From positions 223,856 through 287,855 of the IMG/VR virus record IMGVR_UViG_3300001336_000001: a DNA stretch of 64,000 bases; one strand, written 5' to 3'. The notes under the pieces are model-generated. The model made no database searches and was not told the origin of the DNA. It was given only the letters and a program-made list of their open reading frames with translations. The position numbers and the translations under genes were made by a program. This DNA comes from a virus. Its lineage: Duplodnaviria > Heunggongvirae > Uroviricota > Caudoviricetes. Positions 20,800 to 48,202 of the stretch are shown piece after piece (position 1 is the stretch's first letter; each line of letters starts with the position of its first letter).

Positions 20800-21582
20800 A
20801 TGAATAAAGATATTACAGTAATTATCCCTTTACACGAAATTAATGAGACAACAGAGGGGTTGTATAGCAATGCTATTACGAGTATTGAAAAACAATTAGT
20901 TAAACCAACATCAGTAATGATTGTGACCCCAAAGGGTGGGTCTGCAAGTGAGTTTGCCAAAAATTTCAACTACGGTTCAATTAGCGAATTAGTTAGTGTT
21001 GTTGAAAATGATGGTGAGACTGACTTTTCATCACAAATGAATTTTGGGGTTAAGCGATGTAAAACAACTTGGTTTTCATTGTTAGAATTTGATGATGAAT
21101 ATTCATCAATCTGGTTTAAAAATGTTGATGAGTATATTGAAGCATATCCAGATGTTGAATTATTTCTACCAATGATTGTTGATGTTGATACAAGTGGAAC
21201 ATTTATTGGTTTCACAAATGAAGCAGTTTGGGCCAATAGTTTTTCAGATGAATTGGGTATTTTGGACAAAGAAGCCCTATTAACGTACCAACAGTTCAAT
21301 ATTGATGGTATGGTTATGAAAACAGAAACATACTTAAATTTTGGGGGTATCAAAAAGAATATGAAACTAACGTTTATTTATGAATTCTTATTGAGGATGA
21401 CATTTAATTCCGTTAGAACCATGACAATACCAAAATTAGGGTACAAACATTTAAACCAAAGAGAAGGTTCTTTATTTAATACATATAAAACCCAAATTGA
21501 CCCAGTTGAAGCCAACTGGTGGTTAAATAAAGCTAAGAACGAGTACTATCACACATCAGATAGGGAGCTAAGTTACGAGTAA
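20800..21582 (+). CDS. GT2-like glycosyltransferase
   Basis: 'ITVIIP', 'MNFGVK', 'FSLLEFDDE'. Confidence 0.75.
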   Translation: MNKDITVIIPLHEINETTEGLYSNAITSIEKQLVKPTSVMIVTPKGGSASEFAKNFNYGSISELVSVVENDGETDFSSQMNFGVKRCKTTWFSLLEFDDEYSSIWFKNVDEYIEAYPDVELFLPMIVDVDTSGTFIGFTNEAVWANSFSDELGILDKEALLTYQQFNIDGMVMKTETYLNFGGIKKNMKLTFIYEFLLRMTFNSVRTMTIPKLGYKHLNQREGSLFNTYKTQIDPVEANWWLNKAKNEYYHTSDRELSYE

Positions 21583-21593
21583 AAAAAAATAAT

Positions 21594-33228: not shown

Positions 33229-33927
33229 TTATAATAATAAAAAGTTATCCAACCCTTCAGTTAATGTATTATTACCTTTAATGGTTGATTCGACAAATGG
33301 TTTAGCCTCATCTTTACCCCTAAACATCCAAGAACCAGGTGTACTTGGTGCCGTAACAACATCCCAACAAATTATTTCAAAATCATCTTGAACGATATGG
33401 TCACCATTAACTTCTCTTAATGAACCAACACCCCTAGATGATACACCTATCATAATATTATTCCTTAATAAGTTTGCAACCTCATCACCTTTAGTGGATA
33501 CAATACCATAATTGATATAACCAGGAGTCATCAATATTTCCATCTTACCCATTAAAGTTTTACCTTCCCACCAAGTCTCAATAATATTATGTGAAATCCT
33601 ATCACCTGCAATTATTGATGATTCTGGATGGTCTAATTCACCGATAGCTCTTCTTTCCCTAATTAATTGTTGATACCTATCAACCTCACGTCTTAAAATG
33701 GGTTCAGTGTAAATCCTACCATTTCTATTTTTAACACCATATTTTTGTAATACAACATAAACAATTAGGGGTTCATTCATCGATAACTTATTACCAACTT
33801 CGAGCTTTTTCATTTCATTGATAAATGGTTTATTTCTGATATCATCTGGGGATATATATCCCGCATCAGATTCAATTAAGAACCCAAATCCAGATTCTCC
33901 AGCTTTCAATATTTTAATGTCTGACAT
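33229..33927 (-). CDS. gp21: Prohead core protease (T4 gp21-like)
   Basis: 'NRNGRIY', 'GELDHP', 'GVSSRGVGS', 'DVVTAPS'. Confidence 0.93.
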   Translation of the reverse strand: MSDIKILKAGESGFGFLIESDAGYISPDDIRNKPFINEMKKLEVGNKLSMNEPLIVYVVLQKYGVKNRNGRIYTEPILRREVDRYQQLIRERRAIGELDHPESSIIAGDRISHNIIETWWEGKTLMGKMEILMTPGYINYGIVSTKGDEVANLLRNNIMIGVSSRGVGSLREVNGDHIVQDDFEIICWDVVTAPSTPGSWMFRGKDEAKPFVESTIKGNNTLTEGLDNFLLL

Positions 33928-36014: not shown

Positions 36015-39000
36015 TTAATCCTTTAACATATTATCAATATCATTAATTATACCATTGATATCTTCATTAATTTTTAAACTTTTATCATAAACCTTAACTC
36101 TTTCATTTATGATTATATCTTTTTCTTTTTTGTTAACACTACGCATTAAATTATCGAATCTTTGTGTTTTATTTTTGTTTATTTTACGACCTTCAGTAAT
36201 TAAATTTTTACTATTACGTAATGATTCCCCCGCAATCTCTGGCTCACCACCTTCCTCTGGAACCTCACCACCTTCCTCTGGAACCTCACCACCTTCATCA
36301 CCAAATTCACCTTCATCACCAAATTCATCAGAAAAATCATCAGCCCCAGCATCAAAATCTAAACCTCCACCACCGAAGCCACCTCCACCTACTGGACCAC
36401 CTTCATCATCACCACCTTCATCATCAGAACCATCACCACCTTGTTTAGCGATTTCTAAATCACCATAAATGGCATCAACTTTATCGAATGTCCCAGTGTG
36501 TTTGATTACTTTACTAGTATTCTCAAGTTCAGCAGCAGCTGCTTTTTCCATTCTTTGCTCTAACAAATCCTGTTTTATTTCATCATCACTCCAGTTAAGT
36601 ATTTCCCTATGCGCCCTAGTCATAGACATAGGTGCAAATCCATTACCTGAATCAGAAACAGCATCTTTAAATAACGTTACTTTAGCTTGAAGTTGCTCAA
36701 TCATCAACATTTCAGCTTGGGTCGATGGGTTATTTAACGTGAGTGTAAAATTATCTAAATCATCCTCAAACCCCAACATATATAAATGTATTATAGCTAT
36801 CTTATTTAGTTCAGATAACATTGCTTGCTGTATTCTATTTATTGTTCTAGAAAACCTAACATCCTGTAAGGCTAAGTTTTTACCATCACCTATTGCCTCA
36901 TCAAAATTTAAAAAAGATTTAGGTACCCTAAGTGCGGTAAACAATTTTCTTTGTAAATATTGTATATCGGCTATCTGGTCCAAATTACTATTTTTAATAA
37001 AAACACCACTTTCTGTTGCAAAAGTGTGGTGATTATGGTATATTTCATCCCCATCAACGGTAATTGTACCAGTATCCATTTTATTATCTAACCATTCAAT
37101 CGACACAATTTTATGGTTGTAGTTAGACTCAATATCTGACAATTGGTTTTTATTAATATAATACCTCCAAGCTCTAACATTTTTATAACCTAATTCTTCT
37201 GCTGTAATTTTACACCATTCTCTATAATTTTTAAACCCACGTTCTTTTAACATTTTATCTAAATGGTTTCTGGTGAATTCGTTTAGATTTGTCATTGAAC
37301 TTCTAATACCTTCATTTGAGGTGTTAAATTCAACCATAAAATCAGTTGATTTATTAAGTTCTACTAAAGTTAAATCAGCCTTACCATATAGTTTAAACAT
37401 TTCTAAGAACATGTTATATAGTTCACCAGTAAATGTCAGTGTTTGTTTCTTACTAAAAACTTTTTCTCTATATTCAGTAGACTCCCAGTTCTTTTTCGAA
37501 ATTTCAGAAAATCTCTCTTTAAATTCTTCACTTGATTTAGTTTTACTAATTGCTTCACCTCTACCTTTAATAATGTTTTTTTTGTTTGGGTTTTTATTAA
37601 ACGTTTCATTAGCTTTACATCTAGAGTTAATTGAATTTAATCTAGATTGCTCACCTCTAACAATCCTTTCCTCATTAGTTAGGTTTGAAATATGGTTATT
37701 AATACCCTTCGTTATTTTTCTAACATTTTCTTCATGTTTTTTTGGTGTAGACCACAACTCGTGTCTATGGTATTTATAATGGTCTCTAGAGTCCATTAAA
37801 TATAGGTTATTTGGGTTGTTATTAAATCTATCGTTATCCATATGATGTATAGTACCCATTTTGGTTCTATCATAACCCCCTTCAAACGTAAAATACTGTT
37901 CTTCATCGATACTTTTCATAAAATCATTAACCATTCTATGTGTGAAAACCCATTCTTGTTTCGATGAATCCCATACCCTATCATATTTTTTAGCGTATTT
38001 CTTATTTAATATAACTTCTTCACCCCTATAAAAAGGCATAAGACTATCACCTACTTTTAAATCCTTAGCCTCAACAAAACCTTTTGTTCTATGGACCCAT
38101 TTATGGTCTGGTGTTGTGGTTATTGATTTACCATTATCTAAAGTTATTTTTAATACTTGCGCATCTTTTCTAGTTTCACCAGCCCACGTTATAATACCTG
38201 GAGCTAACTCTCCAGTATTTGGGTCACAAGAATATACCCATAGATTTCTATTACCTTTATTCCATTCATATATAATCTCATTAAGTTCCAAAGTTCTACC
38301 ATCAAGTAATGGTATTCTAGTGTCTAAACTAATACAAGCACCAGGTAGTGTATCGATAGGGTTAGGCGCATCCTCACTCCTAACAGGTATGAAATAATCT
38401 TGGTCATTAGCTAAAGTATTATACCTCAAATCAACCTGACCTGTTTGGGGGTCAACTATCGGTGTTCTTTTAAACCTATTAGCAATTTCCTCAACATATG
38501 CTGGTACATCCTCATCATCAATATTACCAACAAATATTTTATACACACGCCTTTCTGGCGCTCTAGTTATACGGTAAACCAACATAGCATCTTCAGACAT
38601 CAATAATTGTTTCCAAATACGTCTAGCTTTTTCCAAAACTGAGGTACCGTAGGGTAAACGTCTATCATCACCCAATAACCTAAAATGTGCTATTTGCCAA
38701 GAATTAAATATAGCATCTCTACCCCTCCATAAAAATTTAACTTTAGTTGGACCCTCATCATCAACATCCTCACTATTAAAACGATTTCTACCACTAATCA
38801 TATTTTCAAGGATATCACCCTCCCTACGCTCTATCTCGAAATTAGGTAACTGCCTAGCACCCAAAACCCCTTGTTTATCATCAATGTTTAATAAAACAAA
38901 ATTATCACCATATTTACACGTATTTCTAGTCCACATTGGTAGTGAAACGTGAATATCCAATCGGTTAAAGAATAAATCCTCTAAAACACCCTTAATCCTA

Positions 39001-39365
39001 GAAGAATCTGAATAAATATTAAGTATTTTACCCTTTTCATTTATAGTTGTTGATTCTTCCATCATAACATCTAAAGCCGCTGCAATTTCTGGGTAAAATT
39101 CCATACTCTCAAAATCAGTATAGGAACCAATTCTAGTTGTTTCATAATGTAATGTTTGTTGAAACAACTCACCGTCAACCTTTTTCCAAACATTTCTCAA
39201 ATACTTTGTTTGTTGAGCTTGTAATTTGGCTGAATCGAATTCTTCTTTTGATTGTGTTTTTAACAAAACATTGTTATCAATAGAATATTTATTAGATTGT
39301 GGTTTAGAAACACCAGTTGGTCCTAAAATAGTGTTTAACCTTTGAAATATAGTTTGTTTTGGCAT
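36015..39365 (-). CDS. gp20: Portal protein (T4 gp20-like) containing an intein
   Basis: 'EDAMLVYRITRAPERRVYKIFVGN', 'DYFIP', 'IDTLPG', 'KLFTALRVP'. Confidence 0.93.
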   Translation of the reverse strand: MPKQTIFQRLNTILGPTGVSKPQSNKYSIDNNVLLKTQSKEEFDSAKLQAQQTKYLRNVWKKVDGELFQQTLHYETTRIGSYTDFESMEFYPEIAAALDVMMEESTTINEKGKILNIYSDSSRIKGVLEDLFFNRLDIHVSLPMWTRNTCKYGDNFVLLNIDDKQGVLGARQLPNFEIERREGDILENMISGRNRFNSEDVDDEGPTKVKFLWRGRDAIFNSWQIAHFRLLGDDRRLPYGTSVLEKARRIWKQLLMSEDAMLVYRITRAPERRVYKIFVGNIDDEDVPAYVEEIANRFKRTPIVDPQTGQVDLRYNTLANDQDYFIPVRSEDAPNPIDTLPGACISLDTRIPLLDGRTLELNEIIYEWNKGNRNLWVYSCDPNTGELAPGIITWAGETRKDAQVLKITLDNGKSITTTPDHKWVHRTKGFVEAKDLKVGDSLMPFYRGEEVILNKKYAKKYDRVWDSSKQEWVFTHRMVNDFMKSIDEEQYFTFEGGYDRTKMGTIHHMDNDRFNNNPNNLYLMDSRDHYKYHRHELWSTPKKHEENVRKITKGINNHISNLTNEERIVRGEQSRLNSINSRCKANETFNKNPNKKNIIKGRGEAISKTKSSEEFKERFSEISKKNWESTEYREKVFSKKQTLTFTGELYNMFLEMFKLYGKADLTLVELNKSTDFMVEFNTSNEGIRSSMTNLNEFTRNHLDKMLKERGFKNYREWCKITAEELGYKNVRAWRYYINKNQLSDIESNYNHKIVSIEWLDNKMDTGTITVDGDEIYHNHHTFATESGVFIKNSNLDQIADIQYLQRKLFTALRVPKSFLNFDEAIGDGKNLALQDVRFSRTINRIQQAMLSELNKIAIIHLYMLGFEDDLDNFTLTLNNPSTQAEMLMIEQLQAKVTLFKDAVSDSGNGFAPMSMTRAHREILNWSDDEIKQDLLEQRMEKAAAAELENTSKVIKHTGTFDKVDAIYGDLEIAKQGGDGSDDEGGDDEGGPVGGGGFGGGGLDFDAGADDFSDEFGDEGEFGDEGGEVPEEGGEVPEEGGEPEIAGESLRNSKNLITEGRKINKNKTQRFDNLMRSVNKKEKDIIINERVKVYDKSLKINEDINGIINDIDNMLKD
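36990..38336 (-). mobile_element. 449-aa intein with HNH endonuclease
   Basis: Starts 'CISLDTRIPLLDG'; block B 'ITTTPDHKW'; ends 'HTFATESGVFIKN/S'; internal 'THRMV...IHHMDNDRFNNNPNNL'. Confidence 0.92.
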
Positions 39366-44692: not shown

Positions 44693-46393
44693 TTACCACC
44701 ATTTTCCACCTCCACTAAGTCCTAATTTTTTTGAAAATCTTGGCAATCGGCAGCTCCAATAACCTGGTTGACATTTATCGTTATGGTTTCCCTTAGAACA
44801 ACCATGTCTACTATTATAACGTGATTTAGAATCATCATCACTTAATTTAGCCCTTAAACCACCAGAACCGAATCTAACAACTTTAACACCCCTAGGGTTT
44901 GAATCAGTTTTAGTATTACAACCTGGTACATACACCTTATAAGCACTACCGCCAGAACTTTCTCTACTTGGTGAATTAGATTCTTTACCTTTATACTTAT
45001 CAGATTCGTTTAATTGGTTTACACTTAAATCCTCCTCAATAAACTCCAATAATTTAATTTTTCCATTAATATTAACAAATTCACCAGTAAAATCCTCGAC
45101 AATAATTTTATCGTTTTCATTTAATTTAACTATTCCTTTATCGTATAAACTTTTTACTTCCGAAATTAACTTAAAATATTTATCAGAACCATACCTAAAA
45201 ACACACTCACTTAAAGGTATTGAATTATCAATATGGTATTGCAGTTCGTTTGACACTGGCTCATCGGATGTAATTTCCATTGGTTTAGACCATTCATCAC
45301 CACCTATTACATACTCATACATAAAATCATAAACGTCAACAACATGTGTTAATGATTTTGCCGCTAAATTAGATATCCACTCATGGTGAGAACTAATTAA
45401 TTCATCAACAACATCAATATCCATATTTAATATATCGAAAGTTATTCTTTTTAAAGTTTTTAAATCTTGAAAGAAGGTATAATTAGTTTTATCACGATTT
45501 TCACCAAAAACACCGTGATTACCCTGTAAAAACTGGTGAATATTTTGCATATTAACAGTTGCTGTTGTTATGTGCTCGACTGCCCAAGCGTGACCATCAG
45601 ATAATAAATCATCTACACTTTCATCACATGCTGATAATAAATCAGAAACTGATTGGTGTATGCTAAATATGTCATTAAAAAACATTTCGTTTTTAATTTC
45701 TGGGGTGTTAGAATTATTATCATAAACACTTAATTCATCAGTTTCCCACATACCCTTTTCAGGTGTAGAAGGTGTAAAATTAGTGTCTCCAGTTTCGAAT
45801 TTAGGGTCTGATGACTCTTCTAAACCACCATCATCAGAAACATCAAATTCATCATCAGAAGTGGATTCACCACTATCACCATCAGAACCTTCATCATCAC
45901 CCTTATTTATATTAACATCAACCTCAATATCATCATTACCACCACCAGATGAATTAATTTTAGAAATAATATCTTTTCTGTCATCATCTGGCATATCAGC
46001 AGTATTAGTTGCTGAAACAACTGAATTAATAGCAAATTTTTCTAATGAAAAATCAGGTTCACCTCTATTTTCTGTATATTTTCTTAAAGTAGTACCCAAT
46101 TTACCCGCCAACTGTTGAATATATTTTTCTGGGTCCTCATCTTCATCAGCTTCAACACCAGCATCAAATGGTTCATCATCGAAAGGTTTATCATCAGATG
46201 AATCAATATCTTCGTCATCATCAAAATCTATACCACCGAAATCTAAATCCTCATCATCAGAAACAGGTAAAGCTGGCTCACTAGGTGTGTCCAGCTTTAA
46301 TTTATACTTAACTTCTTCTTCTAGATTATATTCCTCTTCCTCGTCAGAAAACAAACCAGTAGTCCTCCCATCCGATGGAGTTTCAGTTAGACT
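44693..46393 (-). CDS. Acidic multidomain protein; probably the -1 frame extension of 46387-47457
   Basis: Frame is open back through the A10 run; only a TTG start at 46354; C-terminal 'KVVRFG...RHGC...PGYWSC' domain. Confidence 0.6.
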
Positions 46394-47457
46394 TTTTTTT
46401 TTAATGTATTTAATAAGGCTTCTTTCTCAGACTCAGTTAAAGAGTTAATAAAGTTTATCACGTTTTTTTCAGTTAAATTTTCATTAACATTACCATATTT
46501 ATCATTTAATTTATCCCAATCATCATGACTAACATATATTTTTTCAGTAGTATCATCTGAAAACGTAACAGTATAAGATTTATCACCATTTTGCTTAGCA
46601 CTTTTTACATCTTTACCTTTAACCTTAATATCTTTATCAGATTCAATAACGATATTCTCCATCATATCGATAGCCTTAGAAATACTAAACCTACCCTTTT
46701 TAGATTCATTAACTTCTTTATTTTTTTTATCACAAAATTCATCAGCATCATCCATGTCGTCAAATTTCTTAATAACTTCAACATCACCATCAACATCATC
46801 CTCACTAGTCACATAATATGATGTACCATCAAAAACAACAACATGTGACTCCACTAACAATCTATCAATTGCCATTTCATTCTCAGATAACTTAACAGCT
46901 TCAAATTCATCATCAACATCTTTTTCAGCTACATTATCCCCAAATTGACCTTCTTCCTTACCTTCTTTAGTGTCATAAGTCAATTTATCACCTTTTTTAT
47001 CAACAATATATTCGGCACCATCACCCATACCTTTAGTAGCACTTAATTTTTGGTCAGCACTATACGGGTGGTGTTCAGTTAATAAATTATCATCTTCGAA
47101 CACATTAATATTACCAGTTTTACCATACGCCTCATTCAAACTCATAAACTTCAAATTTAATTGTTTTATTGCTTTAGCATATGAAGGGTAAGACTCACTT
47201 TTTTTATTACCCAATCCACCGATATAATTAAAATCCTCAGTAACCAAGTTACTTGTCTTATTTGTAACCTTGATATAATACTCAGAACCCTCTTTAACAA
47301 TACCATAAACCCTACCATCGGGTCCAACTTTTGTTAATTCAACTGATGAGTTTTTAACATCCTCCTTTATAACAGAAGCACCCATCAACTCCTTCATTCT
47401 ATTAATTTTTTCAGAACCCTTAAGTCCAGTAGGCCTAACAATAAATGGTTTTTTCAT
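46387..47457 (-). CDS. Putative head-internal protein ending LKKKV at a slippery A10 run
   Basis: 356 aa; many (I/L/V)xE motifs. Confidence 0.65.
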
Positions 47458-47484
47458 ATTTTTATTTTTTATGATTTTTTTTAA

Positions 47485-47742
47485 TTAAACACTAATAGAC
47501 CCCAAATAAGGACTACCAGTTACAACATCTTTATTAAATCCAAGTAAAAAACATCCAGAACCACCAGCAACTGTTCTAAAACGTAAATCGAATCTCGAAC
47601 CAGCCGCAACTGCTACTGAAACACCGTTTAAAGTTATTGAACATCCAGAACCACCACCATAAACTTGTGTGTAGACGTGTTTATCAAGGTCAGCATCTGT
47701 AGCACTAACAATAACTGTATATACATCATTTAACTTAGACAT
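47485..47742 (-). CDS. Small putative virion protein
   Basis: 85 aa; late motif at 47755-47763. Confidence 0.55.
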   Translation of the reverse strand: MSKLNDVYTVIVSATDADLDKHVYTQVYGGGSGCSITLNGVSVAVAAGSRFDLRFRTVAGGSGCFLLGFNKDVVTGSPYLGSISV

Positions 47743-47806
47743 AATCTTTTTTATTATAAATATATTGAAAAAAAGAAAAAAGAAAATATATAAAAAAAAA
47801 CCACAA

Positions 47807-48202
47807 TTAATGTGGTTTTAAATTAAATCTTTCCTTAACTTTTTCCGATATTGGTTCTGGTTCCCCATCCTCATCTATTTTAACGAATACAATCTCATTG
47901 CTAGTAATTATCTTTTGTTCACCAGAATACGGGTTGTGCCTTCTAGCCTCTAATCGTAAGGTCACAGATGTGTTACCAATCGATAATACTTCACCGTAAA
48001 TCTTTACTATTCTATTTACCTTTACTTTCTTGGCAAAGGTTACTTCACCAAATTTAACAGTTACAACTCTTGGGCTATCAACAACCTGTGCCGCTAATAC
48101 CCCACCAGATTCATCTAGCCACGCCAATAACTTTCCACCGAATAAATTACCGTGTGTGCCTAAATCAGATTCTTTTACTACTCTACTTGTAATTAACTCC
48201 AT
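47807..48202 (-). CDS. Acyl-CoA thioesterase (hotdog fold, YciA-like)
   Basis: 'DLGTHGNLFGGKLLAWLDE', 'IGNTSV', 'FVKIDEDG'. Confidence 0.88.
   Translation of the reverse strand: MELITSRVVKESDLGTHGNLFGGKLLAWLDESGGVLAAQVVDSPRVVTVKFGEVTFAKKVKVNRIVKIYGEVLSIGNTSVTLRLEARRHNPYSGEQKIITSNEIVFVKIDEDGEPEPISEKVKERFNLKPH

Follow-up and report, generated by a model that had tools for sequence, protein, structure and literature searches.

A run of ten adenines (A10) within a minus-strand gene of a tailed phage (Caudoviricetes) is strongly supported, by sequence comparison, as the site of a programmed frame change through which one gene would give two proteins, of 356 and 921 amino acids (aa). The gene lies in the last 64 kb of a 287,855-bp IMG/VR virus record (IMGVR_UViG_3300001336_000001) that has direct terminal repeats and is rated complete. 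This stretch of 64,000 nucleotides (nt), with a G+C content of 30.6%, is referred to below as the window, and the upstream and downstream open reading frames (ORFs) of the gene as ORF A and ORF B. Slippage of RNA polymerase on the A-run is favored, with some reserve, as the main route to the longer product. The recoding site is judged from these comparisons to be real, conserved and unannotated, and of a known kind. The elements of the gene are as follows.

46393..46402, minus strand: A10 run (putative slip site), T10 on the plus strand; in the 0 frame it reads (TT)A AAA AAA AAA (G).
46387..47457, minus strand: ORF A, 0 frame, with an ATG start; 356 aa, ending ...NTLKKKV-TAA; the predicted short isoform and shared N-terminal part.
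46387..46389, minus strand: 0-frame TAA stop, one codon past the run, embedded in the −1-frame codons CTA ACT (Leu-Thr).
44693..46399, minus strand: −1-frame extension, 566 codons after KKK plus the stop, ending ...KWW.
46292..46393, minus strand: linker of the −1 product, SLTE...STGLF-like; conserved as protein upstream of any start codon and holding [L/I]-x-E motifs.
46100..46195, minus strand: start of the conserved middle module (P0002 residues ~69–100, the module extending to ~152), upstream of the first −1-frame ATG.
44984..45013, minus strand: second [L/I]-x-E motif (LNE), directly before the C-terminal Cys/His module SDKYKGK....

The minus strand at the junction reads ...AAT ACA TTA AAA AAA AAA GTC TAA CTG AAA CTC CAT CGG ATG GGA GG. 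Re-reading of this strand bore out the junction sequence, the A10 coordinates, the −1 offset and the open downstream frame described in an initial annotation made from the letters of the window. No stop interrupts the −1 frame between 46426 and its terminal stop codon (44693-44695), and the fusion would comprise ORF A residues 1–355 followed by SLTETPSDG...KWW, 921 aa in total. The first start-like codon of the −1 frame is a TTG (46354), 16 codons after the run, and its first ATG comes 136 codons after the run. A10 is the longest homopolymer in the window. Nevertheless, the run alone proves nothing, because base composition predicts about 2.3 runs of at least ten per 64 kb over both strands in 30% GC DNA; its significance comes from conservation.

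Two sets of homologous loci were obtained from IMG/VR. Twenty-two loci were retrieved with ORF A (49–69% identity); the other 80 were taken from the hits of an N-terminal domain profile, which numbered at least 493 stretches. The IMG/VR search with ORF B alone gave no related loci, and its homologues were reached via ORF A. All 102 fetched loci carry an A9–A12 run at the junction. Every locus of the ORF A set has A10–A12 and then a stop within a few bases, with diverging flanks and an ORF B homologue in the −1 frame (22/22). Within the profile set, the 0 frame is broken near its end by a run in 79 of 80 loci (A10 in 74, A9 in three, A11 in one and A12 in one), the ORF B homologue is in the −1 frame in all 78 loci where tblastn detected ORF B, and the +1 frame shuts within 1–10 codons in nearly all loci. 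The eightieth locus (L044) is an exception: its run at this position is A11, so that the extension follows in frame (ILKKKRLTEYKK...). The other A9, A11 and A12 variants keep the −1 split through compensating changes. The −1 frame was thus used in 100 of 100 split junctions in which ORF B was detected, compared with about one third expected for unlinked genes.

Among 69 distinct junction sequences the run is A10 in 63; the stop follows it at anything from 1 to 24 nt, whereas the run itself is constant. The only invariant columns in an alignment of 40 junctions are the ten A's and a single T in the stop codon. The run begins within a TTA, GTA, TCA, GGA, CTA or CCA codon, or else within CAA, GAA or AAA, and all three registers occur among the 69 junctions. 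The residue ahead of KKK is variable (L, V, S, G, P), with a third base that is always A. Other KKK tripeptides in the same ORFs are encoded by pure A9 in just 3 of 31 cases, though AAA makes up 79% of Lys codons. Proteins ending in KKK plus at most eight residues were found in 116 of 117 close clusters of ORF A homologues and in 105 of 150 representative clusters. A metagenome pattern scan for run-length variants returned three contigs, in which all match lengths fit A10. The homologous loci confirmed both the A-run and the −1 offset as conserved features.

The −1 products align as protein from the first residue after KKK, and both frames show protein-level constraint. Conserved motifs sit upstream of the first possible start codon of the −1 frame, the position of which varies from codon 10 to codon 157 by locus. 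The middle module has many invariant columns and lies in frame with the N-terminal domain in other clusters. The TTG that had been read as a weak start for the downstream ORF is present, but it encodes the Leu of the conserved STGLF, and the codon is CTA or TTA in relatives. Because conserved peptide precedes any start codon, the downstream ORF would be made only by a frame change. Taken as comparative evidence, the A-run, the −1 offset and the conservation of an extension without a start indicate selection across the family.

Natural fusions of the two frames were also found, reading ...KKKSL-x-ETKYKLK... in frame. Locus L107 has a single in-frame ORF reading ESTKKKSLIETKYKLKIDD, with A10 kept in a different register. 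Locus L108, which likewise keeps A10, reads TKKKSKIDT... in frame, and carries a second A10 (TTA AAA AAA AAA GAC AAG TAA, L108:4434-4443) ahead of the C-terminal module, after which the −1 frame follows. Locus L109 is in frame because A10 is followed by one additional G, and its second site is A9 (TTA AAA AAA AAC TAA, L109:4300-4308); this contig has 6x coverage and carries little weight. Several other representative clusters read ...KKKSLNEGKYKLK... in frame, and more distant clusters join the N-terminal domain to KYKLK without any KKK. The ancestral state was probably one polypeptide, and the split state with the run dominates the clade of this phage.

The second sites in L108 and L109 lie between the middle and C-terminal modules, each followed by the −1 frame. 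Genes with such a site could give three nested products.

The conserved run and offset, the start-less extension and the natural fusions agree with the two isoforms (356 aa and ~921 aa) inferred in the initial annotation. That annotation had named two findings that would speak against it, namely an A11 run misread as A10 and homologues that are always fused or independently started. About 100 independent metagenome assemblies give the same break, and the homologues show neither of the two patterns named for them; for this reason, only a programmed frame change fits.

As proposed, A10 would be a programmed slippage site at which the templated frame gives 356 aa and continued reading in the −1 frame gives 921 aa. 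The host RNA polymerase would realign the nascent RNA on a run about as long as the RNA:DNA hybrid, adding one A. The resulting A11 mRNA would be translated normally as L-K-K-K-S-L-T-E... to the end of the long frame, while translation of mRNAs of templated or other non-productive length would end a few codons later and yield the short form. Reading an mRNA with one A added amounts to reading in the −1 frame, which all split relatives use. We infer that the polymerase slips and not the ribosome, that the ratio of the two products is fixed and that both products are needed. Runs of at least nine A/T are known to cause efficient transcriptional slippage in bacteria and are used by insertion sequence (IS) elements, Thermus dnaX and Shigella mxiE (PMC1088944, PMC5009743); otherwise they are selected against in AT-rich coding DNA (PMC1088944).

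RNA structure on both sides of the run was examined, both for a nascent-RNA stem and for the 3' hairpin that the initial annotation had proposed together with a heptamer. The element in question (CTCCAT-CGG-ATGGGAG, 46365..46380, minus strand) begins 12 nt after the run, as against 5–9 nt in a canonical bacterial −1 cassette, and its pairing is broken by one bulged G. For the 53 nt that follow the run, the predicted folding energy is −9.3 kcal/mol (z = +0.53), a stability equalled or exceeded by 144 of 200 shuffles. Folds of 61 junctions showed no enrichment, with a mean z of −0.46 downstream, −0.47 upstream and −0.41 in a control segment, and RNAalifold on 40 junctions predicted 0 pairs. The hairpin, neither significant by shuffles nor conserved in homologous loci, was rejected as part of the device, and the heptamer-plus-hairpin mechanism is thus not supported. 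The alternative that the same annotation had offered, slippage on a long A-run, fared better, with about ten A's kept in any of three registers. Upstream of the run, where a Shine–Dalgarno (SD)-like stimulator would lie, no conserved columns were seen in the 40-junction alignment. GAAGG or GAGGG, which code for a conserved E-G, stand 10–15 nt upstream in some clades but not in the window.

A translational route, in which ribosomes shift −1 on A_AAA_AAA or slide on the Lys poly-A with the mRNA unchanged, would give the same two products and is considered possible, if less likely. X_XXY_YYZ heptamers occur in every register of the run, as A_AAA_AAA does here, a pattern that any A-run meets trivially. 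The use of the −1 frame in all split relatives would be expected from such a route, and A_AAA_AAG and A_AAA_AAA are known bacterial shift sites, one of which is used by E. coli dnaX (PMC5009743). Reporter assays of poly-A length (frameshift efficiencies of 10% for 7 A's, 40% for 9 and 63% for 11) did not separate transcription from translation (PMC3711429). Nevertheless, seven bases would be enough for a ribosomal shift, yet ten are kept, including the wobble base of the variable preceding codon, and neither a conserved 3' structure nor a conserved 5' SD-like element was found. In bacterial −1 frameshifting, heptamers that lack a stimulator are usually inefficient, which also argues against this route. 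Polymerase slippage is favored because the conserved feature is the length of the run, independent of register and including a wobble base that the heptamer does not need.

Several points weigh against polymerase slippage as the main route. The level of the slip is deduced by comparing sequences, and A10 necessarily includes A_AAA_AAA, plus A_AAA_AAG in one register; ribosomes that shift −1 or slide on the poly-A may contribute too. In-frame A9–A11 runs are tolerated in other long ORFs of the same genome, and slippage in this genome may be either modest or also used at those other runs. The host is probably a member of the Bacteroidota, the polymerase of which is not characterised for slippage. 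The junctions also share descent, so the counts overstate independent events.

Heritable switching by replication slippage between A10 and A11, with the population mixing short-only and long-only genotypes (phase variation), is improbable. Long homopolymers are hypermutable (PMC1088944), and both the A11 of L044, which reads through, and the extra G of L109 might be taken as such switched genotypes. Nevertheless, A10 was assembled in 63 of the 69 distinct junctions, and the other variants save L044 hold the −1 split by compensation. A start-less frame expressed in a rare genotype only would lose its conservation, and errors next to a homopolymer are likely in the 6x contig of L109.

Very little probability is given to two separate genes, the downstream one initiating at the TTG (46354) or a later ATG, with the run being simply Lys coding in AT-rich DNA. 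Gene callers do annotate two ORFs apart everywhere, and the TTG is only 16 codons past the run. This account is opposed by the TTG being a Leu codon of STGLF (CTA or TTA in relatives), by a first ATG that varies in position from codon 12 to codon 157 and follows conserved modules, by the −1 frame at all 100 detected split junctions against about one third expected, and by the in-frame fusions.

Least probable of all is an assembly or sequencing error (a true A11 and a single ORF) or a decaying pseudogene, for which error-prone homopolymers and the A11 of L044 could be cited, given that the same break recurs in ~100 independent assemblies, that A9, A11 and A12 variants are compensated to hold the −1 split, that KKK plus at most eight residues ends most clusters and that both frames are constrained as protein.

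The closest known counterpart to polymerase slippage at this gene is tssM1 of Citrobacter rodentium, in which a Lys poly-A (A11) just before a premature stop gains an A to restore a long C-terminal extension, giving short and long forms with 20–25% full-length product (Gueguen et al. 2014, PMC4256274). In tssM3 of Yersinia pseudotuberculosis the run is in frame and the truncated form is made by slippage (PMC4256274). This in-frame run parallels those of L107 and L108, so that the split and fused states are mirrored in the two systems. Unlike the phage gene, tssM belongs to a bacterial secretion system, and its mechanism and the need for both forms were shown by experiment, whereas here we infer them; the phage run is A10, not A11 as in tssM1, and hundreds of protein clusters conserve it.

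The tau and gamma forms of Thermus thermophilus dnaX arise by transcriptional slippage on A9 (Larsen et al. 2000, as described in PMC1088944 and PMC5009743). The phage gene is like it in having a run close to the RNA:DNA hybrid length, no stimulatory RNA structure, non-productive frames that close within a few codons and a common N-terminus. Unlike in Thermus, where the templated product is the long form and slippage gives the short one, the templated product here would be the short form, except in fused relatives. The orfA–orfB pairs of IS elements (Baranov et al. 2005, PMC1088944) likewise have overlapping ORFs, a −1 and start-less orfB, and slippage on an A-run conserved among copies; there the product is a transposase and fusion limits transposition, whereas the present gene encodes a phage late-region protein.

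The gpG/gpGT tail-assembly chaperones of lambda (Xu, Hendrix and Duda 2004, as cited in PMC5009743) are also a case of conserved −1 recoding in phages with short and C-terminally extended forms. Lambda-type G/GT uses ribosomal heptamer shifts between the tail-tube and tape-measure genes, whereas the present site is a 10-nt run upstream of the terminase gene. An identity as a G/GT chaperone was considered and rejected: the neighbors are ThyA, an 85-aa gene, unknown genes and TerL, and no chaperone similarity was found in Pfam or PHROGs. E. coli dnaX (A_AAA_AAG; PMC5009743) resembles the site in having a Lys-codon slippery sequence, the −1 direction and two products, but its upstream SD-like element and downstream hairpin are absent or not conserved here.

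The split into two "hypothetical proteins" made by gene callers in every assembly gives the second ORF an arbitrary start, so that hundreds of database entries would be mis-delimited; the actual products would be a short protein and a fusion of ~900 residues. With 829 clusters of ORF A homologues at 50% identity (E ≤ 1e-3) and at least 493 IMG/VR stretches, the family would be among the larger natural poly-A recoding sets, in a phage gene that is not a tail chaperone. Its split, in-frame, run-less and two-site states offer a natural experiment on run length versus isoform ratio. The case also suggests that homopolymer "frameshifts" in AT-rich phage genomes should not be auto-corrected. The literature search found no paper on the slip site of this gene family, nor on DUF3008, DUF6321 or DUF5824.

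Residues 1–130 of ORF A form its most conserved domain. AlphaFold2 with alignments gave a predicted local distance difference test (pLDDT) score of 64 for ORF A, confident only at about residues 37–125, which are modeled as a small beta-plus-helix domain; a C-terminal helical domain is predicted at ~280–356. The extension is acidic (isoelectric point 4.3) and modular, and is predicted to be largely disordered and helical (pLDDT 51). No family match was found for ORF A or ORF B in Pfam or PHROGs. Foldseek against the PDB returned nothing at E ≤ 0.001, profile searches of PDB sequences gave no match, BFVD returned only uncharacterised phage proteins and the ESM Atlas only hypothetical viral clusters. 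VIA-align against 48,161 chains reached a best Z of 5.7, and its WGR-like rows (Z ~4) are not trustworthy.

Among cultured phages, only Flavobacterium phage immuto and the Methylophilales Melnitz phages have domains in common with the gene, each of them single and small. ORF A residues 275–356 (46387-46632, minus strand; L001:3968-4219) are 44% identical to residues 205–288 of the 841-aa gp079 of Flavobacterium phage immuto, the chain of which runs on in frame past the segment matching the ORF A C-terminal domain. Comparison of the N-terminal domain and extension profiles with immuto gp079 by hhalign was negative. For the C-terminal Cys/His module of the extension, counterparts were found in immuto gp099 and at the end of Melnitz gp18; the shared domains are not linked in these genomes. 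DUF3008 (PF11450) was found in the variable middle of some ORF A homologues (P0176 residues 267–321 and P0265 residues 192–246). It was rejected for the window proteins, as P0001, P0002 and all 21 −1 products had no Pfam match above the gathering threshold. These comparisons indicate that the family swaps small modules freely.

The initial annotation had called the products head proteins. No family, fold or solved relative was found to bear this label out, its one support being the conserved position of the gene upstream of the terminase gene, and a head-protein role for ORF A and its extension is a guess from that position. The gene is like those of the inner head proteins of T4 and giant phages (PMC9026906, PMC5694885) in having a T4-type protease gene nearby, [L/I/V]-x-E at two module boundaries and an acidic modular product. 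This is a resemblance only, known here from genes, with a short motif and no homology to known head proteins. Prohead proteases of the T4 type and those of giant phages recognize short motifs, cleaving after the Glu of x-x-Glu, and take off targeting propeptides that in giant phages may be more than 100 residues long (PMC9026906, PMC5694885).

Of the 67 −1 products with a KYKLK, 66 have the motif [LIVM]-x-E, variable in its middle residue, no more than three residues ahead of it. The same motif stands before the EYKGK module in 30 of 36 cases, compared with a background frequency of 0.027 per residue. Nevertheless, the SLTE-type site beside the run is partly an artefact of the overlap, because the 0-frame stop is embedded in −1 codons: in the commonest arrangement (44 of the 69 distinct junctions) the 0-frame TAA or TAG restricts the −1 codons to xTA A/Gxx, which encode Leu, Ile or Val and then a constrained residue. 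Processing of the long form by the prohead protease at [L/I/V]-x-E is a plausible hypothesis, given the placement of these motifs. A further proposal, which must be regarded as doubtful, is that the shared N-terminal protein would be a capsid-targeting or scaffold-binding carrier and the extension a cargo polyprotein released by the T4-type prohead protease at these sites, with A10 setting the cargo-bearing fraction per head. If true, a very large group of uncultured jumbo phages would use a polymerase slip site as a dial for the stoichiometry of proteins that are packaged and possibly injected, with a second dial ahead of the last module in some lineages.

The surroundings of the gene are arranged as follows.

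Minus-strand order up to the gene: thymidylate synthase (ThyA), thioesterase, terminator-like hairpin (47797-47819), 85-aa gene, ORF A plus extension.
Order after the gene: four unknown genes, large terminase (TerL), portal gene with an HNH insert, prohead protease, major capsid protein.
47485..47742, minus strand: 85-aa upstream neighbor of ORF A, conserved, 3' of the terminator-like hairpin 47797-47819.
33229-33927, same strand: T4-type prohead protease, ~12 kb downstream of the slip-site gene.

The phage belongs to a large family of uncultured T4-like jumbo phages, and the block of ThyA, 85-aa gene, slip-site gene, 129-aa gene, 376-aa gene and TerL was found again in relatives. The 129-aa gene is present in 91 and the 85-aa gene in 87 of 105 related loci. 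The 85-aa neighbor carries an internal repeat (...YGGGSGCSITLNG... and ...VAGGSGCFLLGFN...) and had no family match in Pfam or PHROGs. The hairpin at 47797-47819 (minus strand) reads AAAACCACA-TTAAT-TGTGGTTTT and is followed by a T-run, with the thioesterase stop codon inside its loop. It probably marks the start of a transcription unit that the 85-aa gene, as first gene, shares with the slip-site gene. The T4 late-promoter motif TATAAATA had 35 matches in the window against 23 expected, none of them directly upstream of ORF A on its strand.

A/T-rich leaders with no SD sequence stand before start codons at 47443-47500 and 47743-47800 (minus strand). Such A-rich, SD-less gene starts fit a host of the Bacteroidota type. 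The cultured phages with any similarity infect Flavobacterium or Methylophilales only.

Two further runs were noted in the same genome beyond the window. An in-frame A11 (G000:C1:120468-120478, minus strand) lies in a 559-aa ORF reading ...VVKLKKKITETTEK, which had no protein similarity to ORF A or ORF B. This run precedes the same TAACTGAAACT string as the junction, and one A fewer would lead to an immediate stop; it may be a second slippage site acting in the opposite sense. An in-frame A10 (CCA GAA AAA AAA AAT; G000:C1:124306-124315, minus strand) lies 43 codons from the end of a 407-codon open frame. As candidates for frame-breaking slip sites, the A9 at 21581-21589 of the window and the A8 at 124186-124193 of the genome were rejected, both being ordinary A-rich leaders before an ATG.

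Downstream of the terminase gene, the portal ORF (36015-39365, minus strand) encodes 1116 aa. Its match to the portal family is limited to residues 41–343, and an HNH endonuclease match spans ~433–553, which suggests that the portal gene holds an inserted, intein-like element.

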